Below are positions 26,035 through 59,081 of a DNA stretch of 64,000 bases, piece by piece. How positions within the stretch are numbered: position 1 is the stretch's first letter; each line of letters begins with the position of its first letter. This DNA comes from Candidatus Altiarchaeota archaeon (GTDB taxonomy: Archaea > Altiarchaeota > Altiarchaeia > IMC4 > SCGC-AAA252-I15), in the NCBI GenBank assembly GCA_043800705.1, contig JAZDMS010000024.1, positions 1 through 64,000 of the forward strand, written 5' to 3'. Below the pieces are notes generated by a model, which saw nothing but the letters and a program-made list of their open reading frames with translations, was not told the DNA's origin and searched no databases. Position numbers and translations under genes: made by a program.

Positions 26035-26871
26035 ATGGAATCTGTTGAAATCCGTTCCGGCTTCTTCGCAGTCGGGCTCGCCCTGCACATCCCCGAGCAC
26101 GAGACACTGGTTTTCTCCGACGCCCACCTCGGCTATGAAGAGGCCCTCAACAAGGACGGGGTTCTGGTGCCCCGATTCCAGTACCGGCAGATAGCGGACC
26201 ATCTGAGGGAGGTCCTCGCCCAGACCAGACCAAAACGGATCGTCATCGACGGCGACCTAAAGCACGAGTTCGGCAGCATCAGCGGCCAGGAATGGGCCGA
26301 GGTCATGAGGTTCCTCGACGAGCTCAGAAGATACGAGGTCATCCTCGTAAAAGGCAACCACGACACCATCATCGGCCCGATAGCGACGAAGAGCAACGTC
26401 AAAGTCGTCGACCAATACGTCTTAGGCACTACACTGTTCGTCCACGGCGACAAGGAACCGAAGACCATAGACCGAAGACTGAAGACCGGCCTTTTAAGGC
26501 CGGCGAAGGAGAGACATTCGGCTGCAGCCTCAGTCTCTCAGACTAAGGACTTACTGTGTGAACTGGGGGATAAACGCTCATCCCGCATAACTGAAAACCG
26601 AAAACTGAAAACAATCGTCATCGGCCACGACCACCCCGCCGTCGGCCTCACCGAGGAGGGCCGCACCGAGAGGGTGAAATGCTTCCTCGTCGGAAAATGG
26701 AAGGGATACGACCTGGTAGTCCTGCCTTCGTTGAGCTTCGTCACCGAAGGCGTCGACGTGCTGAAGGAGGCCCTCTTGGGCCCGATGCTTCAGGGGGACA
26801 TTTCCGACTTTACGGCGTTGGGATTCGATGGCGGCAGAATCCTCAAATTCGGGACTATAGGGCGGATTTGA
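26035..26871 (+). CDS. Metallophosphoesterase (Lhr-associated MPE/ICC-like) with a 42-aa in-frame insertion
   Basis: SDAHLG, DGDLKH, KGNHD, HGD, GHDHP. Confidence 0.92.
   Translation: MESVEIRSGFFAVGLALHIPEHETLVFSDAHLGYEEALNKDGVLVPRFQYRQIADHLREVLAQTRPKRIVIDGDLKHEFGSISGQEWAEVMRFLDELRRYEVILVKGNHDTIIGPIATKSNVKVVDQYVLGTTLFVHGDKEPKTIDRRLKTGLLRPAKERHSAAASVSQTKDLLCELGDKRSSRITENRKLKTIVIGHDHPAVGLTEEGRTERVKCFLVGKWKGYDLVVLPSLSFVTEGVDVLKEALLGPMLQGDISDFTALGFDGGRILKFGTIGRI
26471..26612. mobile_element. In-frame palindromic insertion (126 nt) bounded by 16-nt direct repeats
   Basis: ACCGAAGACTGAAGAC (26471-86) and ACCGAAAACTGAAAAC (26597-612), 14/16 identical; internal hairpins CCGGCCTT/AAGGCCGG, GAGAGAC/GTCTCTC, GGGAT/ATCCC. 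Confidence 0.65.
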
Positions 26872-26939
26872 GGTTAGGGGACTGAAACCCGAGATTTTTT
26901 AAAGGCTACGTCTGTGATACCGCGCCTGCAGAGATCATT

Positions 26940-27347
26940 ATGAAAAAGCTGTTCGGTTTGACGGTATTGACGGTCGTTGCCTTGGGGGTATTAACCCCCT
27001 TGGCATCGGATGGAGGATACTTTCCGTCTAAGGACTATTTGAATGGTCAGTACGGCAAAGCAAACAGGCAGGGTAATGTTTCTGAACTCTACTACGGGGC
27101 AAATAGGCAGACGGGGAAAAATCGGTCGGACGCTTATCGCGAAGACGGTCAGTTGCGGAAAAACCAATCCGCAGGATTCGCAAAGATGATGCTGTACGAA
27201 CACCTGGACCTGCTTAAGGCTGGGGCGCAGGAGAGGATGGACGGGGACTACGAAAAGGAAATATCGTCTTTTGAGTAGGCGCTCATGATGTCGAAGGCGA
27301 TGTCGGACGACATCGTCAACCAATTCCCGGAAAAGTTCAGATGATGA
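26940..27347 (+). pseudogene. Decayed exported helical protein with in-frame TAG at 27276
   Basis: Signal peptide; MLYEHL...DY..EI; after the TAG the frame continues ALMMSKAMSDDIVNQFPEKFR then TGA TGA. Confidence 0.5.
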
Positions 27348-27351
27348 CGCA

Positions 27352-27368
27352 GGGGCCTAAAAGGCCCC
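27352..27368. terminator. GC-rich hairpin between convergent genes
   Basis: GGGGCCT-AAA-AGGCCCC. Confidence 0.4.
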
Positions 27369-27378
27369 ATGTATTATT

Positions 27379-28893
27379 TCAGGTCTCGACCCCGCCGGCG
27401 AAGTTTTCCAGTTGGTTGGCGAATGATTCCTTGTCCTTGGATAGCCCATCGTTTGCCCAGACGCTCGCGATGAGCGAATCTTCCCCGTATTCGCCTAATC
27501 TAGCATTACTAAGGGCCCTATTCGCACCCTCTAGTTTCGTCAGACCTGTTACTATCAAGTCGTTAACTTTTTTCAGTCTTCCATCGTCAGGATTTGATGC
27601 TGTAAGCGGTTTGAAAACCTCACTCCAGGTCCTTTTATCTTCTCTGGGAAATTCCTTGTCCAATCTGGCTAATTCGTAAACGTAACGTTCCCTCGGTGTG
27701 TATTCCTCAAGCCTTTTAGGCCAGGTCACCTCCACCGATTCGCCACCTATCCGCTTACTGACGTCTTGAACGATCTCCTCGATCAGCGCCCGGTTACCTT
27801 CCGGCCGCAAATGATCTATTTGACCGCGCTGTCTTAGGTAATCCCTGATCCTCTGTTCCCCCTTATCCCTGCCGAGCCGATCGATGGCTGGCCGAAGACC
27901 GTCGACCGCTTCGTCATAGCTGGCTTCCCTTTCCCCGCCGTATGAGTAGGTGCCTGGGTTAGCGGCCCTCCATATCATTTCGAGTTTTAGGTTTCGCCGG
28001 CGTATCTGATCCTCCGAGGACACCTTTGCTTCTGCATCTGGCGCACCAGGGTAGGCAGCCTCGGCTTCCGGCCAGTTTACCTCTACGGATTTGCCCTTAA
28101 GACGCAAGTGGGCATCATTGACAATCTCGTCTATTAGTGATCCAGGATCGACTTTTCCATCCCCTTTGAAGTCTTTCAGCCCCCATTCGGTAATGTATCC
28201 CCTGATTCGCTTTTCTCCGCCTTCATTTCCTAGCCTTGTGATTGCGGGGCTCAGCCGGTCCACCATCTCATCATAATTCGCCCCCTTGCCGCCGACGACA
28301 TCGATCCCCTCCGCCCGTTGAATAAGCTCGAGCTTAAGGTTTCGTCTTTCGATAACTTCGGGTGAGGCGACCTTACCGAGTTCAGTTTCGACGATTTTCG
28401 ATTCTGTCGCCTCAGATCCCGCCACCCTCAACGTCGGCATCGGATCAATTGCCCCCACGCCCACTATGCGATCGTTTATCGATGGTACGACACCAGGCTG
28501 GTCAAGCCGTTCATTGATGCCCGCTGCAAGCCTGCACAGGCGATCGGCTTCGCCGGGGTTTGTTTCCGCCTCCTTTGTCAGCAGTCTTGTATATAGGCGA
28601 AGGATTTTAGCCTTGTCGGGTGTTAGATTTTTCAATCCCTTGACATCAGAAAAATCTGGCAAGTAGGGTTCCCCTTTTCCGCCGCTGAGATAATCTGAAA
28701 ACGTATAGGCATCGCTCAATCCATCTCTGGCTTGCTCGATGCTTAAAGCCAAAAATTTGCCAGTGAAATTCTGTCCTTGGAAACCTGGCTGGCCGAGGAA
28801 GGCCGCAGCCGTGTTATATCCCATTTCCATCCGGTGTTGAAGCTGTTCTTGCTGTGGATCCCTCAGGGCTTGGGGGTCTTTCGATATGCCCAT
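27379..28893 (-). CDS. Orphan protein with an internal tandem domain duplication (about 100-115 aa)
   Basis: RRNLKLE..RA...YDE.VD.L.PAI.RLG...GE.RIR.Y...LI.EIV.D...R..G.SVEV.WP occurs twice. Confidence 0.75.
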   Translation of the reverse strand: MGISKDPQALRDPQQEQLQHRMEMGYNTAAAFLGQPGFQGQNFTGKFLALSIEQARDGLSDAYTFSDYLSGGKGEPYLPDFSDVKGLKNLTPDKAKILRLYTRLLTKEAETNPGEADRLCRLAAGINERLDQPGVVPSINDRIVGVGAIDPMPTLRVAGSEATESKIVETELGKVASPEVIERRNLKLELIQRAEGIDVVGGKGANYDEMVDRLSPAITRLGNEGGEKRIRGYITEWGLKDFKGDGKVDPGSLIDEIVNDAHLRLKGKSVEVNWPEAEAAYPGAPDAEAKVSSEDQIRRRNLKLEMIWRAANPGTYSYGGEREASYDEAVDGLRPAIDRLGRDKGEQRIRDYLRQRGQIDHLRPEGNRALIEEIVQDVSKRIGGESVEVTWPKRLEEYTPRERYVYELARLDKEFPREDKRTWSEVFKPLTASNPDDGRLKKVNDLIVTGLTKLEGANRALSNARLGEYGEDSLIASVWANDGLSKDKESFANQLENFAGGVET

Positions 28894-28927
28894 ATAAGGT
28901 ATCTGGATAGGTGTGAATAAAAGAGGG

Positions 28928-29128
28928 TTACTTTAGTACTTCGTTAAGGCCCTTCTCCAACAGCACCTTGTCGACGAGGTTCCTGTCGTATTTTACGTTG
29001 TCGCCTGCGCACATGCTGCAGATCCCGCGGACGGTTATGTGGTCTGGGCATACGCGCTTTCCACACAGGCTGCAGGTGAAGCCGGCAGCGACCTTTCCGC
29101 AGATGTCGCAGAGGCCTGAGACGTCCAT
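28928..29128 (-). CDS. Small zinc-finger protein
   Basis: CDIC, CSLC, CPDH, CSMC; co-oriented with scpA. Confidence 0.75.
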   Translation of the reverse strand: MDVSGLCDICGKVAAGFTCSLCGKRVCPDHITVRGICSMCAGDNVKYDRNLVDKVLLEKGLNEVLK

Positions 29129-29173
29129 GAATAGATTCCGAAGCCCCGAATAAAAACAGATAACGCCCAAGGC

Positions 29174-29596
29174 CTATTCTGCCTTGGCAAACTTCATCTT
29201 CTCGGGCTTGACCGTGACCGTCGGCAGCTGGATGGGGGCGGGCAGCTGGAGCTTCCGGCTCATGTCCAGGGCTTCGATGATGCTCTCCTGGATGACGGAA
29301 TTGGATATCTCCTTGATTGCCTCGTTCTTCAGCTCCACCTTGTCTTTCAGGTCGGAGTAGACGCTGTCCAGCTTCGGATGCTGGTACCAGAGGAAGCCTT
29401 CTAGGAATATCTCGCCCACTTCCGGAGCGTATTCGACCGAGTATTTGAAGTTGACGAGCAGATAGTCGCCTATCCTCTTGTCTTTGTCCTTCTTGACGGA
29501 CAGGATAGTGGAATTGGCCTTTATCTCTATGCTTTTAACGTTCCTGTCCCTTCTTGATCCGCTGATCTTGTTCAGCTTGAAATTCAAAACCGTCAT
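29174..29596 (-). CDS. Conserved archaeal hypothetical protein
   Basis: 140 aa; F.Y.VEY.P..GEI.LEG and LP.PIQLP pattern typical of an archaeal family; host codon usage. Confidence 0.75.
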   Translation of the reverse strand: MTVLNFKLNKISGSRRDRNVKSIEIKANSTILSVKKDKDKRIGDYLLVNFKYSVEYAPEVGEIFLEGFLWYQHPKLDSVYSDLKDKVELKNEAIKEISNSVIQESIIEALDMSRKLQLPAPIQLPTVTVKPEKMKFAKAE

Positions 29597-29630
29597 CGTA
29601 CAACCTTATATGCAACCATTGTTTAAAAGC

Positions 29631-30344
29631 CTAAGCTGGAATGGGACGTATGTATATTTCCCCGAACAGCTGCTCCTGAGACAATGAGACCCTCTGGCCG
29701 TTGGAAAGGTGCAGGAGGCTTATGAATGTGTGCAGGATCTCGTCCTTGGTCTTGGCGATGTCGCTGAAAAGCGCCACCTCCTTCCCGGCCAGGATGCCCA
29801 TCACCTTGGCATAGGTCTCCTCGATGACCTCCATCATGTTGACCTCAGGCTCGAGGACGAGCTCGGTCGGCGCGTCGCTCTCCCGCAGTTTTCTGCTCGC
29901 CCGAAGCGCTGCGGTCTCGACCCGCTTGGTCTTCTCAGCCAACGCGTCCTGTATCGCCTGGATAAGCTCGTCGGCCGTCACCCTCCTCGTCAAAGACCTT
30001 GCAGGCTTGATCGAGATCGGATACGGCTCGACATCGCCGCCAAGCAATGCGGAAATCGGATAGTCGGAGTTGAATATGAAATTCAATGCTGAGCCCATAT
30101 CGGCGTAGTCCTCCTTCTTGGGGGTCAGTATGTCGGCCTTCATCCGAAGAAGGACGGAACAGACGAGGACGACGTTCGCCGGTATGCGGAAGTTCATCTC
30201 CCGCATCTCGTCGACCTTCCTCGAATAACGGCTCGCTAAGGTTAGAATATCGACGTTCCAGGGGTCCATCCCCTTGAGGACTCCGGTCAGTATGTCCCTC
30301 CAGGTCGCGTCATCCGAGCCCATCAATGCGTCTATGTCTTCCAT
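29631..30344 (-). CDS. scpA: Segregation/condensation protein ScpA (kleisin)
   Basis: MDPWNVDI, LLRMKAD, RRVTADELI.A, TFISLLHL, L.QEQLFGEIYI. Confidence 0.92.
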   Translation of the reverse strand: MEDIDALMGSDDATWRDILTGVLKGMDPWNVDILTLASRYSRKVDEMREMNFRIPANVVLVCSVLLRMKADILTPKKEDYADMGSALNFIFNSDYPISALLGGDVEPYPISIKPARSLTRRVTADELIQAIQDALAEKTKRVETAALRASRKLRESDAPTELVLEPEVNMMEVIEETYAKVMGILAGKEVALFSDIAKTKDEILHTFISLLHLSNGQRVSLSQEQLFGEIYIRPIPA

Positions 30345-30545
30345 GGCTAAAAACACACATAAGCCAACACACCCCGTAGTATAAGATATGGAAAATGGAG
30401 TATAAAAGAACCGCCGGATTTCCCGCAAAAACGCTGGTTTTTATTGGAAAACGATACTACACCCATAATCCCCGACACCGGCTACCCCAGCCGTATAAGG
30501 CTTTTATAATCGTCGGCGGCGATACATAACCTAGTACAGAGGTGA

Positions 30546-31538
<993 letters not shown>

Positions 31539-31542
31539 GCCC

Positions 31543-32592
31543 ATGGCAAAGACAGGCCTCGTCTACCACAGCGACTGCCTGAAGCACCTTCTCCTGGAGG
31601 GCAAACCAGAGACGCCGGAAAGGGTCTCGTCGACGATGGAGCATTTCAGGCAGACCGGACTCCTCGCCAGGCTAAGTCTTTTAACACCCGAGCCTGCGAC
31701 CCATGATGACCTGGAGCTCGTCCACACTGAGGAGCTGATCAACTACGTCAGAGACCTCTCCGATAACGGATACGACGAGAACTCCGTCATCAACGGCGAC
31801 ATCTACATCAGCCCAGACACATACAACTCCGCTCTCCTGGCCGCAGGCGGAGTCAAGATGGCCGCAAAGGCCGTCTGGAGCGGAGACGTGGAAAACTGCT
31901 TCGCGCTCGTGAGGCCTCCGGGCCACCATGCTAAGAGGAACCTGCCGGCTGGATTCTGCTTCTTCAACAACACGGCGGTCGCGATAAGGTGCCTTCAGCG
32001 CAATGAGGGGCTCGGGAGGATAGCTGTCTTCGACTGGGACGCCCATTGCGGAAACGGGACCATGGACATATTCTACGAAGACCCTGACGTCCTTACCATA
32101 TCTGTCCACCAGGACCCGAGGAACTTCTACCCGGGGGAAGGATTCGTGGAGCAGATCGGCGAGGGGGAAGGCAGGGGGTACTGCATGAACATCCCGGTCC
32201 CCGCGGGGTCCGGCGACGCAGACTACATCCGCATCCTCGAAGAATTCGCCCTGCCGAAGATCAGGCAATTCGATCCGGAGATTATTTTCGTGGCCGCAGG
32301 CCAGGACAGCCACGCAGACGACGGAATGTCTGGTTTGAGGCTGACAGACGACGGATACGCGGCGATGAGCTCGAAGCTGAGGGAACTGGCTCTGGAGATA
32401 TGCGACGGAATGCTGGTGCTAACCCTTGAGGGAGGCTACAACGTCGACACCCTGCCCCACACCCATGAGAGGATCGTATCCGCGCTGCTTGGAGAAAAAC
32501 CAGTTGAGATAAGGGGGAAAGCCCTCGAATCGACGAACACGGTCCTGCAACAGCTCAGGCAACAGCTCAAAGGCACTGAAATGGGCGACTAA
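31543..32592 (+). CDS. Histone deacetylase family amidohydrolase
   Basis: RPPGHHA, GFCFFNN, DWDAHCGNGT, AGQDSH.DD, LEGGY. Confidence 0.95.
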   Translation: MAKTGLVYHSDCLKHLLLEGKPETPERVSSTMEHFRQTGLLARLSLLTPEPATHDDLELVHTEELINYVRDLSDNGYDENSVINGDIYISPDTYNSALLAAGGVKMAAKAVWSGDVENCFALVRPPGHHAKRNLPAGFCFFNNTAVAIRCLQRNEGLGRIAVFDWDAHCGNGTMDIFYEDPDVLTISVHQDPRNFYPGEGFVEQIGEGEGRGYCMNIPVPAGSGDADYIRILEEFALPKIRQFDPEIIFVAAGQDSHADDGMSGLRLTDDGYAAMSSKLRELALEICDGMLVLTLEGGYNVDTLPHTHERIVSALLGEKPVEIRGKALESTNTVLQQLRQQLKGTEMGD

Positions 32593-32990
32593 AGAAGCCT
32601 CTTCACGTCTGCAACGATCTTGGCATGGTCGAATGCGAGCACCGGTTGCTTGCTGAGATCGAACCACCTGGCTTCCTTCGCGTCATCAGCGCCCTTGAGG
32701 GTCCCGTCCTTCTTCCGGCACAGAAATGCGACGCTGACCGTGTGGCCGCGCGGATCCCTCATCGGATCGCTAAAGACGCCGACGAGGGCTTTTACGTCGA
32801 CGTCGAGGCTGGTCTCCTCTCTCGCCTCCCGCACAACGGCAGCTTCGACAGTCTCCCCAACTTCGACAAAGCCGCCGGGGAGGGCCCAGCAGCCCTTGAA
32901 AGGTGGATTTAGCCGTTTTATCAAGACTATTCGCCCACCATCCACTATCGCCGCATCAACAGTAAGCTTCGGAGTCTCAACAGACAACAT
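32589..32990 (-). CDS. NUDIX hydrolase (ADP-ribose pyrophosphatase-like)
   Basis: WALPGGFVEVGETVEAAVVREAREET Nudix box; RDPRGH, LAFDH. Confidence 0.95.
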   Translation of the reverse strand: MLSVETPKLTVDAAIVDGGRIVLIKRLNPPFKGCWALPGGFVEVGETVEAAVVREAREETSLDVDVKALVGVFSDPMRDPRGHTVSVAFLCRKKDGTLKGADDAKEARWFDLSKQPVLAFDHAKIVADVKRLL

Positions 32991-33239
32991 ACAAACAGAT
33001 TATTCACAGACAAAGGTTAAAATCATAATAAGGCCACGAATTCCAGGGGGAATCGCCAGATAGAAAGAAGCAGGGAAAAAAATACAGATGGGTTCGCCCG
33101 GCCAAACCGTGGATTGGACTTCCGCCCCGAGGTCCTGAGCTTTTTTAGCCCACCGTCCAGTAAATGAACAGGGCCATAGCTTCTCGCCTCACGTGAGGAA
33201 AAAGCACAGTGTAGGCGAACCGAGCTCCCACACCAGGGC

Positions 33240-33770
33240 ATGGACAGATCGATACTCGTCACGGGCGTGCCAGGTTCCGGAAAATCGGAGGTATGCGAGG
33301 AATTGAAGAGGCTCGGCCACAACGCATTCGACATCGACTTAATTCCTGAGATGCGTTTGGTAGTCGACAAATCCACGGGGAGGATATCTGCCGCCTACGA
33401 CAACAGGAACCTTGCATCGGTTAAACAGCGTTCCTTCCTCTGCGATAAAACGAGGCTGCACGATTTCATCAACAGGAATGGGCGGAGCATGGTGTTCTAC
33501 TGCGGAAACGCATCGAACATCGATGAGCTTCTGTCCCTGTTCGACGCGACATTGCTGTTGAAGGCGAGCGAAAGCGTCCTCCTTGAAAGGCTGAAGACAC
33601 GAACGTCCAACAACTTCGCTCGCTCTCCCGAAATCCAGGAATGGATACTCGGCTGGAAAAAAAGTTGGGAGGACAGGTTAATTGAAAAGGGGGCAGTAGC
33701 CGTCGACGCGGACCGCAGCATCCATGAAGTGGCCTCCGACGTAGTCGAGAAGGGCAGGTCACCAGGATAG
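33240..33770 (+). CDS. P-loop nucleotide/shikimate-kinase-like protein
   Basis: ILVTGVPGSGKS; ERLKTR lid motif; VDADR. Confidence 0.8.
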   Translation: MDRSILVTGVPGSGKSEVCEELKRLGHNAFDIDLIPEMRLVVDKSTGRISAAYDNRNLASVKQRSFLCDKTRLHDFINRNGRSMVFYCGNASNIDELLSLFDATLLLKASESVLLERLKTRTSNNFARSPEIQEWILGWKKSWEDRLIEKGAVAVDADRSIHEVASDVVEKGRSPG

Positions 33771-33827
33771 CCATGCGCTGAATTCAGGCACAAACGCCGC
33801 ATAGACGGTAGTCAACGCCGGGGATAA

Positions 33828-34188
33828 TGGGCCGAAGTCCCAGGTCTGCAGTCTTCGGTCTCCGACGAAGACTGAAGACAGCAGATTAAACAGTTAGCCC
33901 GCCCGAATTTTTTGAAGTCCCCAGTCTCCCGTCCCCGGTCATCTGCCCCCGGTCAAGCAATCGATGGAGACTGCAGACCGAGGACTGAAGACAGCGAACT
34001 GATGACTTGGAAAAAATAATGGACACGCCCGGATTCGAGAAATAAGCCACATGCTTTTTTACATCCTGGCGGGTGCGTGAATTCGACGTACAATCAGTCA
34101 ACACCGGCCCGCCCGGATTCTGCACAAGCTGCGACTTGTGTCATCCAGGCAGGTACATGAGACGAGACGCTAATGAAAAGATAAGAAT
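33828..34188. repeat. Array of tRNA-Val 3'-end relics separated by hairpin/heptamer cassettes
   Basis: Copies of TGGGCCCGCCCGGATTCGA at 34106-20 (15/15), 34020-38 (17/19), 33897-909 (12/13); inverted heptamer blocks at 33837-33890 and 33917-34007. Confidence 0.7.
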
Positions 34189-34263
34189 TGGGCCCGCCCG
34201 GATTCGAACCGGGGATTCCCGCCTCGTAAAGGCGATGTCATAACCGGACTAGACCACGAGCCC
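34189..34263 (-). tRNA. tRNA-Val(TAC)
   Basis: GGGCTCG/CGGGCCC acceptor stem, anticodon loop TTTACGA, T arm CCCGG-TTCGAAT-CCGGG; CCA not encoded. Confidence 0.96.
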
Positions 34264-34319
34264 TTTGAAGGGGTATTAGATAGGGTTTAAGGTTTTAATA
34301 AGGATATTATTTTAATCGG

Positions 34320-34542
34320 GGGTAAGCGAAGCGACACAGCCGACGCGATGCGTCGGGTGTGTGTCAGAGACGAAAAGTCTCTGCCACAATCCCCCTTTTC
34401 GCCAGCCTCCCCAAAACAGCTTTGCTGTTTTGGAGGCGCCAGTTGGCTATGAGCCAACTGAGCGTTTCTTTAGAAAAGGCTGCCGGGACTAGACCACGAG
34501 CCCTTTTTATCCTTCTCCCAGGGGATTATTGGGTTTTAATAA
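34320..34542. mobile_element. Hairpin-rich element followed by a duplicate of the tRNA-Val 5' end and promoter
   Basis: GGACTAGACCACGAGCCCTTT identical at 34246 and 34486; GGTTTTAATAA at 34291 and 34532; four to five perfect hairpins between. Confidence 0.6.
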
Positions 34543-34584
34543 TACAGCCGAAGGGTTTATATGCGTCCAATTATTGATCCCTGC

Positions 34585-35274: not shown

Positions 35275-35302
35275 ATTTCATCCTCCTTATCTATTTTGGA
35301 TA

Positions 35303-36529: not shown

Positions 36530-36596
36530 ATTAAATGATTATTTTCTGATTTAATAACCGCGTCACTAGGTCTTATCGGGCACCGGGGAAGTGAAG

Positions 36597-36622
36597 AACC
36601 CCGCAGCAGAGCTGCGAAGTAT
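36597..36622. repeat. REP-like palindrome
   Basis: AACCCCGCAGC-AGA-GCTGCGAAGTAT, hairpin with a 3-nt loop in the intergenic region. Confidence 0.4.
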
Positions 36623-48475: not shown

Positions 48476-48524
48476 AAAAACGACTAACGCCGCATTTTTT
48501 AAAACCAGAGGCCATTACATTTAC

Positions 48525-51127: not shown

Positions 51128-51198
51128 ATAAACTCTTTCGCCGAGGTCGTAAAAAAATAGGGGGAACGTTTTTATTCCGGGATTCTTAATGCCTTCCT

Positions 51199-52320
51199 AT
51201 GGATTATTCCAGACCTGTCCCCGGAAAGCTCATGTTTGAGGCGCTGAAGAACGAGAGATGCATAGTGATGGCGTGCAACATACGCATCGGCCACAGCGTC
51301 CGCGGCATCATGATGGCGGCCAAGGAGATTGACGCCGCAGTCCTCTTCGAGATCGCCAAGAGCGAGATAAAATACACGGGCCAAAACCCCAGGACGTTCG
51401 TCGACAACATACTCAAGATCGCAAAGGAGCTGAAGTTCAGCCAGCCGTACGTCATCCACGGAGACCACATAGGAGTCAAGAGCCCCGATCCCAAGGACGT
51501 AGAATCGGCGGCGACCCTTATCAGGGACGAGATCGCGGCGGGATTCACCTCCTTCGCCATCGACGCGAGCCACAATTTCAACGCCGCGGCGCCAACGGTC
51601 CGGGAGCAGCTCAAAGACAACATCGAGATCACGACGAAGCTCTGCGGCCTCATACCCAAGGACGCCAGCCTCGAGGTCGAAGTCGGAGAAGTCGGCAAAA
51701 CCGACCCAACTACCGGGGAAAAGGCCATAACGACCGTCGAGGAGGCGGTCACATACATAAAAGCGATCAACGAGAACGGCTACAAGCCGGACCTCCTGGC
51801 CACGAACAACGGAACCAGCCATGGCAACATCTTCGACAAGAACGGGAAGCCAATTCCAAAGAGCATCAACGTCGAAAGGACAGGCGAGATAGCGAAGGCC
51901 ATAAAGCCTTATGGCGTCAGGATAGCGCAGCATGGCATCACAGGCACGCCCCTGGAGTACATGCCAAGGCTCATCGAAGCGGGGATAGCCAAGGGCAACG
52001 TCGGCACGAACTGGCAGAACATAGCGGTCGCGGCGATGCCAAAGGACCTCGCCAAGCGGATGGAGGACTGGACCCTGAGCTGCGAGGAGAGCGCCAAGAT
52101 GAGAGCCAAAAAGCCGGGCTGCAAGGACTCGGAGCTGATTGGAAAGAACATCAAGAACGCGATCGTAGTGTTCAAATCGGAGATCGACGCCATCAAAGGC
52201 GACGACCTCAGACGCATAGACGAGGCGACAAAAAAGGGGGCGCTGGAATTCTTCGGCGCATTCAACGCCAAAGGCACGGCCTCGAAGGTGAGGGCGCACA
52301 TAGAATCCAAAGGCCTATGA
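51199..52320 (+). CDS. fba: Class II fructose-bisphosphate aldolase
   Basis: HGDH, GFTSFAIDASH, EVEVGEVG, NGTSHG, QHGITG, KGNVGT. Confidence 0.92.
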   Translation: MDYSRPVPGKLMFEALKNERCIVMACNIRIGHSVRGIMMAAKEIDAAVLFEIAKSEIKYTGQNPRTFVDNILKIAKELKFSQPYVIHGDHIGVKSPDPKDVESAATLIRDEIAAGFTSFAIDASHNFNAAAPTVREQLKDNIEITTKLCGLIPKDASLEVEVGEVGKTDPTTGEKAITTVEEAVTYIKAINENGYKPDLLATNNGTSHGNIFDKNGKPIPKSINVERTGEIAKAIKPYGVRIAQHGITGTPLEYMPRLIEAGIAKGNVGTNWQNIAVAAMPKDLAKRMEDWTLSCEESAKMRAKKPGCKDSELIGKNIKNAIVVFKSEIDAIKGDDLRRIDEATKKGALEFFGAFNAKGTASKVRAHIESKGL

Positions 52321-52937
52321 CCTGTCTGACCCTCGCCATCCTGGACAAGGTCGACGACATGCTCAGGAAGAGGCTGGATGATGCCAAAAACCTCAAAGAC
52401 CATCTCATCGACAAGGCAGGGGCGGACTACCTACTTGCCACAACGGAAAGGAGGATTGAGTTCGAAGGGGTCAAACCAGTCCAGATCGACTTCCAGGAGC
52501 GGCAGGAGGAGGAGTTCGTCGCCCTCATAGCGGAAAAACCCGTCGACTTCGGGATAAGCGCCTACAGGATATACGCGGACCCGTTCAACACGCCGAGCCT
52601 CGTCGACGACGAGCGGATCGGCGACGGATTCATCGTGAAGGCAGGGAGATTATACGACATGCCCGAGGACAGCCTCAGGCTTCTTCGGGCGATCAGGAAA
52701 GGGGCAAAGACGGAGGCGGTCTTCCGGCGGGATGGAGAGGAGTCCGCATCCATGGACGACGCAGCGTTCCTCGCAAGGTGCGGGCCGTACCACCCGACTA
52801 GGCAGGAGATCCTCGCCCCATTCCAGGCGAAGGGGGGAAAAACAGTGAAACTTCACGTCCTGTCGATCGGCGTCAAAAACGGCAAAATAACCATCGACAA
52901 CACCTTCAAGCCGAAAACTCTGAAACTAAAGGCCTAA
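52317..52937 (+). CDS. Orphan hypothetical protein translationally coupled to fba
   Basis: ATGA overlap with the fba stop; host-like codon usage. Confidence 0.65.
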   Translation: MTCLTLAILDKVDDMLRKRLDDAKNLKDHLIDKAGADYLLATTERRIEFEGVKPVQIDFQERQEEEFVALIAEKPVDFGISAYRIYADPFNTPSLVDDERIGDGFIVKAGRLYDMPEDSLRLLRAIRKGAKTEAVFRRDGEESASMDDAAFLARCGPYHPTRQEILAPFQAKGGKTVKLHVLSIGVKNGKITIDNTFKPKTLKLKA

Positions 52938-54364
52938 GAGCATCGCAGTATCGTGTAATTCCCGAGAAATGGCTCATCGAACTGCTTCACAGCCTTGCAC
53001 CTTTGCATAAGAAAGCTTCTGACCTCCGGGATGTTGGTAACGCCCTGGGGAGGAGGCGACACGATCACTGTCTTCATGGGGGACTGCTCAAGCCTGCCAA
53101 GGAATTCCCGGATGTCCGTCGTGCCCGAAAACCGCTGGATGTTGGTATCCGCCTCGTCCAACGCGATCCTCCGACCCGCCAAAAGAGCGATAAGCGGAGC
53201 GCTCATCGAATCCCCGAACACTTCGTCGCCGGGTCCCGTTTTTGAATTTATGTAGTCAGCCATCGGATCTGCGGTCACGAAAGAGTAGTAGGATTCGTGG
53301 ACATAGTACGCCAACACCGCCCATGAGGACATGATCACGATGAGCCCGACGACGATCCTGAAAAGGCCCTTATCCCCCGTAGAATCGATCCAGGAGCCCA
53401 ACACCCTGGCCGAGACTGCAGCGGCAAACGGCGCAACAAGCAGGAAGTAGTGGTCGAATATCGTGTTCATGAGGCTGAAGAAAACCGCGAAGCACGCGAC
53501 CGACAGAACCAGCAATACCGAGAGGTCATCGACCAAAGGCTTTCGCATGATCAGCGGAATCCCCAACAGCGGAAGGAACAAGAGAGGGTTTGATTTGACG
53601 ACATCGAGGAAGGTCGCCAGATTATGCCCCTCGAAAACAGGCTTATGAAAATGATAGAGATAGACGCCGTCCAGGTACGGCTGGCCGATCAAGACGTAGA
53701 GGAGGACGTTGAAGGATGCGAATACGATGATGAATCCGCCCAACAGGGGGGCTGCGAAGCCCGCGACATCCCTCCTGCGCAGCAAAAAGAAAATGACATA
53801 TGCGCCTGCCAACGCCGCGGAATAGAGGCCGGACATGCATGCCACACCGACCAGCAGGCCGGATTGGAGATATCTGCCCTTCCAGAACATGTAAAGGCTC
53901 CAGGACATGAACAACACAGCCAGGTCCGAACCCATCGGATGGGAGGATACGCGCAAACCGACGTACGAGAAGAGGAAAGTCGCCGAAGCGATGATGGCAG
54001 TCGTCCGGCCGAAGGCCTCAAGGACCGTCAGGAACAGAAAGACCGATGCTCCCGCGACCGAAAGGATCGCGACAGACTTGAGGATTACCAGGTTGAACCC
54101 GAAAACGCCGAAGATGAGGCCGTTGACCATTATGCCGAGTGGCGGGTGGCTGAAGAAGAAATCCCTGTAGGGCACCCTGCCCTCCGAGATAAGCTTGCCG
54201 AAATAGAAGAGGTTGTTCTCGTCGGATATGGCATAATTGAAGGCGAGGGTCTTCAGGCCGAGGAAGAGAAAAAGCAACAGCAAAAAAGGCGTCCAAATGC
54301 TCCCTTGCAGGAATCCTTTCCTTTCCGAGCCTTTTTTTGGCTTTTTCACGCCCTTCGAAACCAT
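52934..54364 (-). CDS. GT-C fold membrane glycosyltransferase
   Basis: SDENN, G.VPYRDFFFSHPP, FDHYF; many TM helices. Confidence 0.85.
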   Translation of the reverse strand: MVSKGVKKPKKGSERKGFLQGSIWTPFLLLLFLFLGLKTLAFNYAISDENNLFYFGKLISEGRVPYRDFFFSHPPLGIMVNGLIFGVFGFNLVILKSVAILSVAGASVFLFLTVLEAFGRTTAIIASATFLFSYVGLRVSSHPMGSDLAVLFMSWSLYMFWKGRYLQSGLLVGVACMSGLYSAALAGAYVIFFLLRRRDVAGFAAPLLGGFIIVFASFNVLLYVLIGQPYLDGVYLYHFHKPVFEGHNLATFLDVVKSNPLLFLPLLGIPLIMRKPLVDDLSVLLVLSVACFAVFFSLMNTIFDHYFLLVAPFAAAVSARVLGSWIDSTGDKGLFRIVVGLIVIMSSWAVLAYYVHESYYSFVTADPMADYINSKTGPGDEVFGDSMSAPLIALLAGRRIALDEADTNIQRFSGTTDIREFLGRLEQSPMKTVIVSPPPQGVTNIPEVRSFLMQRCKAVKQFDEPFLGNYTILRCS

Positions 54365-54431
54365 GCCTTATACTATCCAAAATCGGCAATAAATACGGAT
54401 TTTTAACCTCGGTTGCCATATTGTGTAAGTT

Positions 54432-55121
54432 ATGAAGTTTCATTTAGCATGTCTTCTTGTTCTTGCGGTTTTTGTCGGAGGATGCCTCGGCGACGACCAG
54501 ACTCCGGCAAACCAGAACGGCGCCTCATCCACGACATTGACGGCCCATCAGGAGACTACGACCACCTCGGACGGCCCGCCGACGACTATCGACATCGAAG
54601 AGGAGGAGATCCCGACCACCACGACCATAAGGATCCCATTTAACATGACAAACTGCCAGAAAGAGGCGAATGCGACGATACGGGATGCGTGCTTCTTCGA
54701 TGCCGCAGGCCGCGAAAAGGACATCTCGATATGCGCAAAGATCGACTCCAAGAACACAAGGCTGAAGTGCCAGGCAAGGCTTGAGGACGATTCAGCCTAT
54801 TGCGACGATGTCGACGTGCAGGTCGAGAAGGACTTCTGTTACAGGATGATGGCCTTCAAATGGAACAAGCTAAACTACTGCAAGGGCATATTCTACGCCC
54901 AGATCAGGGACAAATGCGTCCTAGACTACGTAAGGGACAAAAAACCAGACCCATACGAATGCTTCCAGATAGTCGACTCGGCGATGAGGGACGAGTGCAT
55001 CTACTACCACGTCGACCTGTATGACAGGACCGGCGCGGGCATCAAGCCGACCCTCTGCAACCTCCTGAACAACGAGACCATGGAGCTGAAGTGCAACGAG
55101 ACGTACCTTAAAGGCTATTGA
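54432..55121 (+). CDS. Cys-repeat lipoprotein
   Basis: Lipobox VGGC; Thr-rich linker; repeated C..I......D.C motifs. Confidence 0.8.
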   Translation: MKFHLACLLVLAVFVGGCLGDDQTPANQNGASSTTLTAHQETTTTSDGPPTTIDIEEEEIPTTTTIRIPFNMTNCQKEANATIRDACFFDAAGREKDISICAKIDSKNTRLKCQARLEDDSAYCDDVDVQVEKDFCYRMMAFKWNKLNYCKGIFYAQIRDKCVLDYVRDKKPDPYECFQIVDSAMRDECIYYHVDLYDRTGAGIKPTLCNLLNNETMELKCNETYLKGY

Positions 55122-55178
55122 ACACTTTTCCAAAGGACTAGCCTTTTTATTAACGCCGAAACCGGCAAAATGGATTAG

Positions 55179-56303
55179 GTGAATGTTTCGGAAAAAATCA
55201 GGATACTCGGCGCGGCAGGCAAATGGGACGTCTGCGCGAGTTCAGCATCGACGAGGAAGCCCGCAGGCACTGACAGGATCGGGAACCTCGCCGCAGGCGG
55301 CATATGCCACAGCTTCACCGACGGCGGCCGATGCGTCTCCCTGTTCAAGACCCTCCTCACCAACGACTGCAGCTTCGACTGCAAATACTGCCAAAACAGC
55401 ACCCACTGCAGGAAACACGCCGCGGAATACGAGCCGCACGAGCTTGCGAAGGTCTTCATGAGCCTATACCTCGGAAACTACGTCGAGGGGTTGTTTCTCT
55501 CCTCCGGCGTCTGCCGGGACCCGGACTCGACGACAGAGAAGATGCTCGACGCCGTGAGGCTCCTTCGCCAAGAACACAGGTTCCAGGGATACATCCACTT
55601 CAAAGTCCTGCCCGGAACCGACAAAGACCTCATAAGACAGGCAAGCGAATGCGCAGACCGCCTCTCCATCAACATCGAAGCCCCAAGCAGCAGCAGGCTT
55701 TCCGAGATGACGGACGTCAAGGACTACGACGCGGACATAATACGCAGACAGAAGTGGATGAGGGATATGAGGATACCTTCGGGCCAGACGACCCAGATAG
55801 TCGTCGGCACAAGCGACGAAACCGACCAGGAGATACTCGAAGCCGCAAGATGGGAATACTCGGAGATGCGGCTGAAAAGGGTCTACTACAGCGCCTTCCA
55901 GCCGCTGGAGAAGACGCCCCTGGAAGCCAGGGACAAGACCCCGCTTGAGAGGGAACACCGCCTGTACTGCGTCGACTTCATGATGAGGAAATACGGCATA
56001 CCCTACGAGGAATTCAGGGACATACTCCAAGACGGCAACCTCCCCGAAGGAGACCCGAAAGTCCACCTCGCAAGACAGGCATTGGACGGACCCGTCGACG
56101 TGAACGCAGCACCATACGAGGACCTCATCAGGGTACCGGGCATCGGCCCCCAAAGCGCCAGGAGGATAATAGAGCTGCGACAGGCTAAAGCTACGATAAA
56201 CCGAAGCAGGCTGAACAGCATCGGAGTCGTCCTGAAAAGGGCAGACCCGTTCATCAAGGTTGCAGGAAATATGCAAACAACAATGGGGGAATACGTCACA
56301 TGA
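55179..56303 (+). CDS. Putative DNA modification/repair radical SAM protein (TIGR03916-like) with HhH
   Basis: GICHSFT.GGRCVSL.K, CSFDCKYC, GQTTQ, RVYYSAF, REHRLY, RVPGIG. Confidence 0.92.
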   Translation: MNVSEKIRILGAAGKWDVCASSASTRKPAGTDRIGNLAAGGICHSFTDGGRCVSLFKTLLTNDCSFDCKYCQNSTHCRKHAAEYEPHELAKVFMSLYLGNYVEGLFLSSGVCRDPDSTTEKMLDAVRLLRQEHRFQGYIHFKVLPGTDKDLIRQASECADRLSINIEAPSSSRLSEMTDVKDYDADIIRRQKWMRDMRIPSGQTTQIVVGTSDETDQEILEAARWEYSEMRLKRVYYSAFQPLEKTPLEARDKTPLEREHRLYCVDFMMRKYGIPYEEFRDILQDGNLPEGDPKVHLARQALDGPVDVNAAPYEDLIRVPGIGPQSARRIIELRQAKATINRSRLNSIGVVLKRADPFIKVAGNMQTTMGEYVT

Positions 56304-56881
56304 GCCACAATGCCGGATTCGGCCTCGTCAAAAGGCACAGGGATTATGATATGAGGCTGCACGATACGGTCCTCATGCAGGACCCAACCCTCGTCAAAAA
56401 CTGCGCGACACCCGAGTCCAAAAGGCTCTACCGCATGCAAAGGGAGGTAAGCAGATGCCTCCATGCAAAGAAAGGATTCCTCAGGCTGAAACGCTCCCCC
56501 CATGGCATATTATACGCCCGCACAGAACTCGAACACGACCTTGCAGACCTGCTCCTTTCGCACTTCCACCACAGATACCCCACATACCACATAGCACTCG
56601 AACACCGGAGGATGACATATATCGCCGCCCCCGGAGGAAAAAAGACAGTGACCGATGAATCCCTCGAAGAGGCAGTCCTAAGGCTCGAAGCCAGCCTGCC
56701 CAGGGAAGACTCCGGCCGCACCGATGAGACCCTCTGGAGACAGTACTACGACAGCCAGATGTCGAAGGAACGCAGGAACCTCCGGCTAATGGACAAGATG
56801 ATGCCCCGCAGGTACAGGGACAAGGACTCATACGAGAACAAGGCGGAAACATTCAGCCGCAGCCTCGTCGACTACGCCTAA
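56300..56881 (+). CDS. TIGR03915/DUF4130-like DNA repair partner protein
   Basis: V.R..H.KKGFLR, HF..RYP, ETLWRQYY, ERRNLRLM...MPRRY; ATGA overlap with the radical SAM gene. Confidence 0.85.
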   Translation: MSHNAGFGLVKRHRDYDMRLHDTVLMQDPTLVKNCATPESKRLYRMQREVSRCLHAKKGFLRLKRSPHGILYARTELEHDLADLLLSHFHHRYPTYHIALEHRRMTYIAAPGGKKTVTDESLEEAVLRLEASLPREDSGRTDETLWRQYYDSQMSKERRNLRLMDKMMPRRYRDKDSYENKAETFSRSLVDYA

Positions 56882-57816
56882 AGCCTGCCGAAGCCGAAAA
56901 CCCTCGGTGGCTTAAGCCCCGGATCGAGGAAAACGACGCGCCCGCCCAAAATCGGGGTCTCCTTCTCCAAAGAAAGCTTCAGCCTACCCGTCTTGCCCTT
57001 CTCGACAGAACCCGACACGACCTTGGCAGGCACATAGTTCAGGCAGGAATTCACGCTGAACTGGTCGCCGACGCCAAGCGGCCGCGGAGCATACTTGGAC
57101 AAGACTGCGTCGATCTCAAGCTCCCTCACGACTGGGACGGAACCGTCCACAGACAAGATACAACCCCGGGGAACATCCTCTGGCCTGATGTCCTTCAGAG
57201 CCACGCCGACCCTTAGGCCGGTACCGGCCTCTTCCATGTCGACGTCATGGACCTGCAGCGACTTCATCGACACCTTCAGCTTATGCGGGAGGATAAGCAG
57301 ATTGTCGTGGCGTTTGAGCACGCCCTGTTTGACGACGCCCAAAGCGACTGTCCCGACGCCCTTCACGGGAAAGGAGTGATCTACCTGGACGACTGCGGGG
57401 CCCTCATTCTTGCACTCCAGCTGGGCGAGCCTCTCCTTCACCACCATCGACTGATCCTCCAAGACCTCATACGAGCCCGCGACTGTGCCTTCAAGGAGAG
57501 ACTTGAGCGCTCCCGCATTGACGGACCCCCCGTAGACTATGTAGCCTTTGCCTACCCCCACCATATCCAATGCTACCACCGACTCCGCCAGCGACGCATC
57601 CAACGCATCTATCCTCAAAAGAGCCTGATCGGCCATGTTCAAAGAAGACAGAAGAGACTGGACCTTGTCGGGGTAAGACGACGGCTCCACAAATGACAGG
57701 ACCGCGTCCCCGACCTTGGAATTATACAAGGTCACGTCGCTGACAGTACCCTTCTTCCCCAATTGACCGCCCAAATCCCGCCCCAACACCGCGGTGACAT
57801 TGCCCCGAAAAGCCAT
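56878..57816 (-). CDS. Archaeal SelB-like/EF-Tu domain-II protein (SelBL paralog)
   Basis: LGKKGT.SD.T.Y, YPDK, VDHSFPVKGVGTVALG, SLQVHD, G.RVG.AL; G motifs degenerate. Confidence 0.85.
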   Translation of the reverse strand: MAFRGNVTAVLGRDLGGQLGKKGTVSDVTLYNSKVGDAVLSFVEPSSYPDKVQSLLSSLNMADQALLRIDALDASLAESVVALDMVGVGKGYIVYGGSVNAGALKSLLEGTVAGSYEVLEDQSMVVKERLAQLECKNEGPAVVQVDHSFPVKGVGTVALGVVKQGVLKRHDNLLILPHKLKVSMKSLQVHDVDMEEAGTGLRVGVALKDIRPEDVPRGCILSVDGSVPVVRELEIDAVLSKYAPRPLGVGDQFSVNSCLNYVPAKVVSGSVEKGKTGRLKLSLEKETPILGGRVVFLDPGLKPPRVFGFGRL

Positions 57817-57855
57817 AGAAAATACTGTGAAAACGGGAATATATGCGTGCAGATG

Positions 57856-58485
57856 CTAATCCGCAGCCCTCACCGCCTCGACCATCCTCTTGAACGCCGC
57901 GTAATCGTCGGACAGGTCCAACGCCAAAGAACCGTCCACCTCAAAAAGCCTGCAGCTCACCCGCGGAAACTTCACAAACTTCGCAGAGACCACGACCAGG
58001 CCGTATTTGTCCAGGAGGCATCCGGGATCCACCTCGTCGAATACGTAATCCAGGTCGCATCCCCGGCCGCCGAAAAGCTGCGGCAGGAGAAAATCCACGA
58101 TAAAAAGCCTCACAACCCCGTCCGAGGAGAACCTGACGCCGACCGCCTGATGCGCGCACCCCATCAGGGAATCGCAGAACTTCCCCCCGAACAGGGCCCT
58201 CACCCTCGAAGGCTCCCGCTCCCCGACGGCCAATGCGACCAGCCGCCTTACCTGATCCGGGTCAAGACCCGAACCGCCGACGTGAACCAACGGCAACACC
58301 TCGGCGTTGAACCCCGACTCCCGAAGGAACCGCGCCACCATCGAAGAGGCAGCCCAACAACAGAGAGGATAACCCAACCTAGGATCCGACGAAAGGACCC
58401 TGTGCAGAGGCGCCCGCATATCCTCCAAAAAGGACCTAAGAAACGACACATCGGCCCCTACATCAGAATCCACCATAGCCCCCAT
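57856..58485 (-). CDS. Hypothetical protein with a transglutaminase-like Cys-His-Asp pattern
   Basis: CCWAAS.MV..FL...G, AHQAV, IVDF..PQ. Confidence 0.5.
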   Translation of the reverse strand: MGAMVDSDVGADVSFLRSFLEDMRAPLHRVLSSDPRLGYPLCCWAASSMVARFLRESGFNAEVLPLVHVGGSGLDPDQVRRLVALAVGEREPSRVRALFGGKFCDSLMGCAHQAVGVRFSSDGVVRLFIVDFLLPQLFGGRGCDLDYVFDEVDPGCLLDKYGLVVVSAKFVKFPRVSCRLFEVDGSLALDLSDDYAAFKRMVEAVRAAD

Positions 58486-58635
58486 ATGCTAAAACAGCCC
58501 ATTTGAGGGAGTCTGTGGCCTCTACCAACCCCTCAGAGGAGCGAGTTTCATCCTCGAATCCCATGCACTTATATTCGAAAAAAACACTAATATAGACCAC
58601 AAAAACCGCAAAAAACCCTGCAATAAGAAGTAGAT

Positions 58636-58779
58636 CAATCCGGTCCCATGGCTCAGGCTGGTTCGAGACGCAGCCCTTTTCTTTACGAAAGAAAAGCGCT
58701 GGCGGAAAAGAAAAACTAACGAGTCATCGGAAAACATGCACCCCCAGGACAGGAGGGGAAGAAAACAAAAAAACACACA
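58636..58779. mobile_element. Duplicate of the tRNA-Ile 5' end followed by a hairpin module
   Basis: CAATCCGGTCCCATGGCTCAGGCTGGTT (58636) vs CAATACGGTCCCATGGCTCAGGTTGGTT (58780), 26/28; then GCAGCCCTTTTCTTT-ACG-AAAGAAAAGCGCTGGCGGAAAAG. Confidence 0.6.
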
Positions 58780-58785
58780 CAATAC

Positions 58786-58860
58786 GGTCCCATGGCTCAG
58801 GTTGGTTAGAGCGTCCGACTGATAATCGGAAGGTCTCGAGTTCAAATCTCGATGGGACCA
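58786..58860 (+). tRNA. tRNA-Ile(GAT)
   Basis: GGTCCCA/TGGGACC acceptor stem, TCCGA-CTGATAA-TCGGA anticodon arm, TCGAG-TTCAAAT-CTCGA T arm. Confidence 0.96.
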
Positions 58861-58868
58861 TTAGAGCC

Positions 58869-59081
58869 CCTTTCTTTCTTTTGCTAAAAGAAAGAAAGGC
58901 CCTCGGGTTCAAAGAAAGAAAACCGTGCCATCTTTGATGGCACCTGGGAAGAGTAGGGTTGATAAGGGCGAGAAACCCCAGAGGGGTGTCTTGCCCTTAT
59001 GTTCAACTTGATGGGACCATCTATTATCCTTACGAAGCGACATCGTCCGAATAGTCCCTCGAGATGTAAAAATCTCGAGGG
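58869..59081. repeat. Hairpin series downstream of tRNA-Ile with a tRNA 3'-end relic
   Basis: Stems at 58869-99 (14 bp), 58925-43, 58962-59000 and 59056-81; GATGGGACCAT repeated at 59010. Confidence 0.65.

Follow-up and report, generated by a model that had tools for sequence, protein, structure and literature searches.

Integrons recombine attC sites, which carry the R boxes RYYYAAC and GTTRRRY, by means of the IntI integrase, and CTX phage uses a folded single-strand att site. In archaea, excerpts of two reports describe integration at tRNA genes by tyrosine and SSV-type integrases, with the 3' part of the tRNA as attachment site (PMC7253208, PMC6563490), and an excerpt of a third describes casposon (Cas1) integration at tRNA 3' ends with a target duplication of 14-16 nt (PMC5137440). 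Here we analyze a window of 64,000 nucleotides from a Candidatus Altiarchaeota archaeon (bases 1-64000 of contig C22; genome G000, 2.0 Mb in 43 contigs, 87.6% complete), in which short hairpin-rich inserts flanked by direct repeats lie at five loci, namely the 5' and 3' ends of a tRNA-Val and a tRNA-Ile gene and the interior of a phosphoesterase gene. An initial annotation had ascribed them to one undescribed family of non-autonomous elements, and all five repeats were found where it had placed them. The literature searched, seen in part (integrase-borne tRNA integration, casposons and general reviews), held nothing that describes the tRNA-end unit (D-unit) or the hairpin module (module A) reported below.

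We propose, with a probability of roughly 0.4, that the five loci are copies of several lineage-specific, non-coding, hairpin-rich insertion cassettes, which sit at gene ends and would be moved by recombination at a short block of identity. Each cassette lies between two direct copies of the end of the gene next to it, and the hairpin module stands beside the spare, non-functional copy, so that one intact tRNA or reading frame remains. The cassettes vary between species, are nested, form tandem arrays of differing length, and are confined to one lineage. The same tRNA-end repeats also enclose segments of 0.7-1.6 kb that carry genes. As the initial annotation had it, the inserts are non-autonomous; they are non-coding and recur in the genome, and their long, variable target repeats (about 11-165 nt) leave one intact gene copy. 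The single family has to be replaced by at least four hairpin families (D-unit, module A, type 2 and type 3), plus heptamer foldback arrays.

As in tRNA-integrating elements, inserted DNA is enclosed by direct repeats that span the tRNA 3' part, T-loop to 3' end, while the tRNA stays intact, and tandem arrays and gene-bearing segments (with PIN-domain genes, among others) lie at the same tRNAs. The D-units differ from such elements in their length (86 nt, too short for an integrase open reading frame, ORF), in that integrase presence does not track them, and in having one conserved body with retuned arms at 10 or more tRNAs; similar cassettes also occur here at 5' ends and in protein genes. 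With casposon and CRISPR-type integration, as far as the excerpted account goes, the loci share the insertion at tRNA 3' ends, a target duplication of 14-16 nt there and an array resembling repeat-spacer-repeat. They differ from it in that no Cas1 was found in this genome, the bodies are a conserved family and not arbitrary DNA, and the repeats elsewhere reach 165 nt.

Hairpin cassettes at the tRNA-Val and tRNA-Ile genes

An Rfam 15 scan of the window at gathering score matched only its two tRNA genes, Val(TAC) and Ile(GAT), and no other RNA family. The features at the two genes are as follows, with the underlying evidence in brackets; R1 is a covariance model of the D-unit.

34486..34506, minus strand: upstream copy of the tRNA-Val 5' end, exact over 21 nt (repeat search)
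34394..34485, minus strand: module A variant with nested hairpins in its loop (fold z -7.65)
34189..34263, minus strand: tRNA-Val(TAC) (tRNA call)
34104..34188, minus strand: D-unit 1 after tRNA-Val, ending in a tRNA 3'-end copy (R1, 57.1 bits, E 1.7e-12)
34020..34103, minus strand: D-unit 2, more decayed (R1, E 1e-9; fold z -0.38)
33896..34019, minus strand: heptamer foldback tract, then a weak third tRNA-Val 3'-end copy at 33896-33910 (read from the sequence)
58642..58669, plus strand: upstream diverged copy of tRNA-Ile nt 1-28 (repeat search)
58670..58710, plus strand: module A variant whose loop contains an AAAGAAA palindrome (sequence reading and fold)
58786..58860, plus strand: tRNA-Ile(GAT) (tRNA call)
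58866..59008, plus strand: three hairpins after tRNA-Ile, namely a AAAGAAAG palindrome, a GC hairpin and a type-3 module, GGTTGATAAGGGC...GCCCTTATG (fold z -8.77)
59010..59020, plus strand: tRNA-Ile 3'-end copy (offset 159)
59021..59085, plus strand: collapsed D-unit without inner hairpin (R1, 28.8 bits, E 1.6e-4; fold z -3.71)

The tRNA-Val 5' repeat consists of 21 identical nt at 34246-34266 and 34486-34506 (offset 240), and 3'-end copies follow at +85 and +169, with the weaker one at 33896-33910. The tRNA-Ile 5' repeat agrees at 26 of 28 bases (offset 144), including 17 exact ones at 58641-58657 and 58785-58801; at the 3' end, GATGGGACCAT at 58851-58861 is found again at 59010-59020. Seven of eight window inserts folded better than their shuffled versions (z -2.3 to -8.8), the exception being the second Val unit (z -0.4), and 3-nt loops were frequent, which bears out the earlier description of hairpin-packed inserts with many such loops.

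The nested sub-module of 34394-34485 recurs in the relative G003, at tRNA-Ile and at an ABCE1-like gene, and a relative of the 58670-58710 variant lies at C18:34839-35078, flanked by a repeat of at least 68 nt. In G002, of the same genus, the tRNA-Ile gene (L033:355-518) is interrupted at the canonical position by an intron of about 89 nt, built of a AAAGAAAG palindrome and hairpin modules; these parts are the same as those downstream of tRNA-Ile in the window.

D-units copy and complement the end of the adjoining tRNA

A D-unit is about 86 nt long, begins at the base after the tRNA (discriminator+1), always has the orientation of the tRNA, and consists of four parts. The 5' part contains TAGTATC, a small hairpin and CGTNTCACGAAC. 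It is followed by the arm-prime, 11 nt complementary to tRNA nt 59-69, by an inner hairpin (GTAAAAAG...CTTTTT in this genus, AAGCGAG...CGAGCGG in other genera), and by the arm, a copy of tRNA nt 58-73. Arm-prime and arm pair as an 11-bp stem reproducing the T-stem/acceptor segment of the adjoining tRNA, and the unit folds into two helices with an internal loop of 2 nt versus 5 nt and a variable apical loop. Units at 10 or more different tRNAs share this one conserved body, each with arms retuned to its tRNA. The initial annotation spoke of target duplication, and target repeats do bracket the inserts; duplication by a staggered cut does not explain the co-varying complement in the tRNA 3' units.

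Model R1 was built from 23 D-units. It detected 18 in this genome at E ≤ 1e-3, three of them outside the training set, and 77 altogether in 53 sources, which comprise the window, loci of the genome, relatives and metagenome contigs, among them 18 of the 24 metagenome loci fetched. Directly before 65 of the 77 units (within 3 nt) stands a 15-mer equal to their own arm (at most 3 mismatches); the remaining 12 are decayed copies, boundary offsets and one reverse-strand echo. D-units in metagenomes begin just after the tRNA end called by ARAGORN (L082 2128/2129, L087 2458/2459, L088 365/366 and 635/636). Viral contigs searched with the D-unit core pattern contained none.

Across the 77 units, 88.5% of the stem cells are paired, and 178 double-change cells were counted versus 43.9 in shuffles (none of 500 shuffles reached the observed value), figures that are generous since the alignment was fitted to R1 and the sequences are related. 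Controls with a slid partner gave far lower pairing than the true stems. RNAalifold independently recovered the outer stem, with compensating changes in 8 of its 9 pairs; it missed the first small hairpin, which is nevertheless seen in individual units. On the tRNA-sense strand, G-U pairs outnumber A-C mismatches by 52 to 25.

Strong covariation in both helices, the independently recovered stem, the G-U excess, the constant orientation and the fixed start at discriminator+1 would all be expected if the D-units, as distinct from the other modules, were structured tRNA 3' trailers with a function for the host, cotranscribed with the tRNA, mimicking or sequestering its T-stem/acceptor strand, vertically inherited and co-evolving with it. 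Apparently orthologous D-units kept between species with compensating changes, a genomic context of housekeeping genes and no mobile-element genes (both described below), and the terminator-like A-run/T-run of the inner stem in genus g1 point the same way. Against this, only about one third of the tRNAs carry a D-unit, copy number at the same tRNA varies from 0 to 4 between species, and the T-run is not conserved in the other genera. The last 4-5 nt of the arm are unpaired and follow the tRNA as well, which a plain hairpin role would not require. The repeat layout is also found in gene cassettes and other module families, Rfam gave no match, and the covariation comes from a model-fitted alignment of related sequences. 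On this evidence we consider a trailer function less likely than not, but the main alternative to recombination; 3'-end processing, termination, folding control or action as a decoy are tentative candidates for it. Readings of the D-unit as C/D-box RNA, H/ACA RNA or bulge-helix-bulge intron were dropped by eye, the box and bulge motifs being missing, and an origin from mature tRNA (with reverse transcription stopping near position 58) was rejected, since CCA is missing from the copies and some repeats extend into the flank.

The fold of the D-unit resembles attC and the CTX att site in being an imperfect two-helix hairpin with an asymmetric internal loop and a variable terminal loop. As in attC, an inverse core is complementary to a core repeated between cassettes, and ORF-less as well as gene-bearing cassettes are arrayed beside a fixed entry site. 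The core of the D-unit, however, is 16 nt of the adjoining tRNA and not a fixed GTTRRRY, the entry site is a tRNA end, and the outer stem is specific to the tRNA; this genome yielded only a Xer-like recombinase and no integrase of the IntI type.

Module A and further hairpin families

The module that the initial annotation saw shared between loci is real and recurs in the genome and its relatives as module A. Its first stem, of 5 bp, closes a loop TT-NNN-AA of 7 nt (sometimes 6 nt) and is followed by a linker GCGAAGG(AG) and a second hairpin whose loop starts with TTCGC. Both stems co-vary. For comparison we used 49 genomes of the order, 21 of them in the family (relatives are labelled G001-G005, G016 and so on). 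A strict pattern found 9 copies in the present genome, at tRNAs and elsewhere, 9 in G003, 6 in G001 and one each in four further genomes, hence in 7 of the 49 and in none of the other 42; the reversed control gave no match in any genome. Copies away from tRNAs likewise lie between target repeats:

start of an ABCE1-like gene (this genome): module A, repeat of about 165 nt, the last 84 exact
C33:4112: module A, repeat of about 67-75 nt
C10:6430: module A, repeat of about 50 nt
C25:29160: module A, repeat of about 40 nt

Module A is similar to tRNA-derived short interspersed nuclear elements, as it resembles an anticodon arm (5-bp stem, 7-nt loop YU-NNN-AA) followed by a T-arm-like hairpin with a loop starting TTCGC, and is non-autonomous with target duplications of variable length. 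It differs from them in its prokaryotic host, in having no A-tail of its own, and in that no reverse transcriptase was found in this genome. The linker reads GCGAAGGAGG, which contains a Shine-Dalgarno-like AAGGAGG (for example at window 26503-26513).

Type-2 (...GGGGGCGGTAGCC...) and type-3 modules stand directly before the distal repeat copy, at tRNAs and at the 3' ends of protein genes, and one type-2 repeat terminates at the stop codon. The type-3 module has the form GGTTGATAAGGGC...GCCCTTATG, its window copy being the one after tRNA-Ile.

An insert in a phosphoesterase gene

The fifth locus is within a protein gene:

26035..26871, plus strand: SbcD-related/PdeM-like phosphoesterase gene, ORF in frame across the insert (TIGR00024 matched in two stretches, 8e-47)
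26466..26596, plus strand: insert of about 126-129 nt (amino acids about 146-188), found in this genome only (comparison with relatives, DNA alignment)
26471..26486, plus strand: left copy of an imperfect direct repeat, a GAAGAC-type heptamer tract (Tandem Repeats Finder, TRF: period 7 at 26457-26488)
26486..26538, plus strand: module A with a 6-bp stem, TTTTAA loop, GCGAAGG linker and second hairpin (pattern and fold)
26597..26612, plus strand: right copy of the imperfect direct repeat, a GAAAAC-type heptamer tract (TRF: 26593-26612)

The 16-nt repeat claimed for this gene exists at an offset of 126, with the qualification that 26471-26486 and 26597-26612 agree at only 14 of 16 bases and are themselves built of heptamer-like units, so that the native copy cannot be told from the spare; the tract at 26597-26612 is identical to arrays elsewhere in the genome. 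The gene was matched in 23 relatives, two of which gave partial matches and were left out of the empty-site count. In all 21 relatives with both halves found the insert is missing and the halves (residues about 1-145 and about 189-277) are 0-21 nt apart, corresponding to about 43 extra residues in this genome. Scanning the genome contigs with the phosphoesterase protein revealed only one distant relative. By description, the insert may be likened to the Rickettsia palindromic elements, also structured repeats inserted in frame in protein genes, from which it differs in being flanked by a target repeat and in belonging to a family that prefers gene ends and tRNAs.

Repeats across the genome

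At least 27 tRNAs were matched in the genome, several of them with long introns. When the first and last 16 nt of each tRNA were sought within 1.2 kb (at most 2 mismatches), copies of the own 5' or 3' end were found near 20 of 28 tRNA loci, where chance would give about 0.001 per tRNA by our own arithmetic. Seven loci have 5' copies (at -82 to -257) and 15 have 3' copies, nine of these at +85 to +98; a search with exact 10-mers adds further copies. Exact direct repeats of at least 14 nt spaced 45-450 nt apart form 809 merged pairs in 146 bins, versus 4 in a Markov-1 random genome. After removal of short-period tandem arrays, 201 pairs in 105 groups are left.

The heptamer tracts (GAAAACY or GAAGACY) that the initial annotation had noted beside the inserts are real and occur genome-wide, forming inverted foldback arrays in which GTTTYCR repeats are followed by YGAAAAC repeats. 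TRF gave 169 overlapping rows with a period of 7, 14, 21 or 28, which we estimate by eye to be about 50 loci. Copies of a tRNA end enclose some of the arrays (window 33896-34019; C23), and some are located in frame within genes; the array at C25:69827-69939 is apparently in frame within an HD-domain-like gene (gene reading by eye). Two further repetitive regions lie on the contig of the window, an array of GAAGACTGAAAA with a period of 14/28 nt at window 21418-21497 and, beyond the window at the contig end (C22:78111-78545), a hairpin-rich region with a 124-nt exact direct repeat 311 nt apart.

A fragmented assembly of 43 contigs might be suspected of producing repeats, by misassembly or chance. 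The excess of 809 over 4 pairs, the covariation, which cannot arise by artefact, and the recurrence of the same architecture in at least eight separately assembled genomes and in 18 of the 24 metagenome loci leave this explanation a negligible probability. The duplications are not assembly artefacts, as the same architecture is found in independent genomes and contigs.

Single-gene segments of 0.76-1.15 kb lie between exact 16-nt tRNA 3'-end copies at C9:72732-74150, at C14:102694-103931 and downstream of C14:124359; by eye, one carries an acetyltransferase-like ORF and one a nuclease-like ORF. An array follows tRNA-Gln (C30:533-4160): first a segment of 1.55 kb, then a D-unit, a segment of 1.64 kb, two further D-units and finally a heptamer tract, with a copy of the tRNA-Gln 3' end between each and the next. 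The segments encode a PIN-domain protein and a large membrane protein, and just past the array come another PIN-domain gene, a regulator of the HVO_A0114 type and a DUF7718 gene. A 120-amino-acid ORF after tRNA-Gln, suspected to be an integrase N-terminus, had no Pfam match.

Presence, absence and copy number between species

The occupancy of a given site differs between relatives. At the ABCE1-like gene, module A is found just 5' of the start codon in three species, bracketed by repeats of about 165 nt (this genome), exactly 50 nt (G001) and about 13-15 nt (G003, in which the module carries a nested sub-module), and G016 and G005 have no module. Empty alleles, which demonstrate insertion, are hence present in relatives at both the phosphoesterase and the ABCE1-like loci. 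For tRNA-Val(TAC), G001 has no 5' copy and four D-units, including two identical pairs, G002 lacks D-units and has two 5' units that are of another type, and G003 and G005 have one D-unit each. For tRNA-Ile, two D-units are found in G001, one in G003, and none in G004 and G005. The tRNA-Gln gene adjoins its D-unit in metagenome locus L088, with 1.55 kb between them in this genome. G003 carries identical 86-nt D-units after two different tRNA-Val genes, the identity stopping exactly at the arm. At tRNA-Val(GAC), two D-units are apparently orthologous between this genome and G001, in which coding DNA is only about 70% identical, and the arm-prime has followed an acceptor-stem change between the two.

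Repeat lengths of about 11 to 165 nt, often running slightly past the gene end, and exact tandem duplicates such as the identical pairs in G001 could also result without dedicated mobility, if template switching or break repair at hairpins copied a nearby module into a duplication junction and only gene-sparing events survived. Strong hairpins could stall forks, and no enzyme was found. We nevertheless judge this improbable, because the same module families with sharp boundaries occur at many loci in several species, one gene start was hit in three species, and simple template switching does not yield the tRNA-specific arm-prime.

Search for an enzyme

D-units occur in 8 of the 49 genomes of the order, all of one family (18, 17, 5, 4, 4, 2, 1 and 1 copies), and in none of the 28 genomes of other families. 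We searched for Y1 transposases (PF01797), Cas1 (PF01867), reverse transcriptases (PF00078) and tyrosine recombinases (PF00589), which include enzymes the initial annotation had suggested. The present genome has no match to the first three and, as the only tyrosine recombinase, a Xer-like protein encoded beside a triosephosphate isomerase-like ORF. Tyrosine recombinases do not track the D-units: PF00589 was found in 10 of the 21 family genomes, including only 3 of the 8 with D-units, and gave no match in the other five (G001, with 17 D-units, among them). Absence of an enzyme is not proof here, since all these genomes are incomplete (74-92% for those bearing D-units). In the metagenome loci, 96 ORFs were called, and 52 of at least 110 amino acids were picked from them after overlapping calls had been removed by eye; the 18 loci matched by R1 supplied all but two of these. 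They were housekeeping or unknown, and none was an integrase.

In five family genomes (L076-L080), the Xer-like recombinase gene lies about 0.2-0.6 kb from a contig end, in four of them on contigs of only 2.2-2.6 kb, which suggests that the gene is next to a repeat or an assembly break.

These searches bear on the initial view of the inserts as HUH/REP-like transposons with single-stranded DNA intermediates, in which units resembling miniature inverted-repeat transposable elements (MITEs) would be mobilised by a trans-acting transposase, HUH (Y1/RAYT) or other, that makes long target duplications. The elements share with REP/REPIN-RAYT and IS200/IS605 palindromes that they are short non-coding hairpins oriented 3' of a defined sequence, with a complement 5' of the hairpin, an arrangement reminiscent of guide/cleavage-site pairing in IS200/IS605, and the hairpin-rich ends and many 3-nt loops would also fit. 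IS200/IS605 elements have subterminal hairpins and insert without duplication; the D-unit has two hairpins and lies exactly 3' of the tRNA end, and its arm could be a cleavage site or a duplication alike. In IS200/IS605, however, the pairing involves 4-5 nt, versus 11 Watson-Crick nt in the D-unit, and the elements described here have no Y1 gene in the genome, a low copy number (about 18 D-units and 9 modules A per genome) and long target repeats. PF01797 was found in 4 of the 21 family genomes, exclusively in genera without D-units and in none of the 8 genomes bearing them, while control genomes gave matches. The ends of D-units (TAGTATC... and the tRNA 3' end) and of module A are not inverted copies of each other by inspection, as would be expected for a DDE-type MITE, the repeat length is not fixed and short (about 11 to about 165 nt), and the genome lacks matches to Cas1 and reverse transcriptase. 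We therefore regard a transposon of this kind as very unlikely, and the HUH/REP-like proposal is not supported.

Proposed recombination at a short block of identity

Recombination between gene-end copies is favoured because unrelated module families and gene segments have the same layout, the repeat length varies at one and the same locus, copying is precise to the unit, and no transposase fits. Cassettes would then be gained, lost and copied by recombination within a short block of identity, possibly through unequal exchange between arms, pop-out of a circle (X plus arm, X standing for the insert) or re-entry at a gene with the same end. The repeat would be a recombination core or homology block, not the footprint of a transposase, and the arm-prime/arm hairpin may be kept as a recombination substrate or as a mask of the spare tRNA end. 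The element itself would encode no enzyme; host recombination and repair, or an integrase missing from the incomplete genomes, are candidates for the catalyst.

Several observations weigh against this proposal. Among the four enzyme families searched no catalyst for cassette movement was found, G001 has 17 D-units yet no PF00589 match, and the metagenomic neighbours are housekeeping genes with no integrase among the 52 picked ORFs. The apparent orthology of the tRNA-Val(GAC) units and the tracking of the tRNA by their arm-prime fit long vertical retention under selection. The 5' part of the D-unit is about equally conserved between different tRNAs and between orthologous sites, which suggests sequence constraint. 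A neighbour analysis was mixed: among 34 units of G000 and G001, the nearest neighbour of the 5' part had the same arm in the other genome in 10 cases, the same arm in the same genome in 9, another arm in the other genome in 9, and another arm in the same genome in 6. A block of 16 nt is also short for homologous recombination. Weightiest are the points on the D-units (apparent orthology at deep divergence, compensating changes, sequence constraint and housekeeping neighbours), all of which would fit a functional tRNA trailer.

Movement by recombination and a role as tRNA trailer are not mutually exclusive. It is conceivable, if on the unlikely side, that the D-units are a new kind of programmable element, whose conserved 70-nt body carries paired addresses (the 11-nt complement and the 16-nt tRNA copy) retuned to each tRNA. 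These would direct either an enzyme-light recombination into the end of that tRNA, comparable to integron attC or guide-directed insertion but addressed by a tRNA, or the making of tRNA-mimicking trailer RNAs; the other modules would share the route that duplicates gene ends, and tRNA ends would be platforms for cassette capture.

Implications

The modules break or pad genes, as seen in a 42-amino-acid in-frame insert, spare gene starts and one tRNA intron built of the same parts, and they will mislead genome annotation in this lineage. Should the D-unit prove to be an RNA, it would represent a trailer element specific to its tRNA and without a described counterpart. If instead the repeats mark a recombination route, DNA would dock at tRNA genes in a compact manner and without an integrase, its address held in a retunable hairpin, and this would bear on the origin of attachment sites and cassette arrays.

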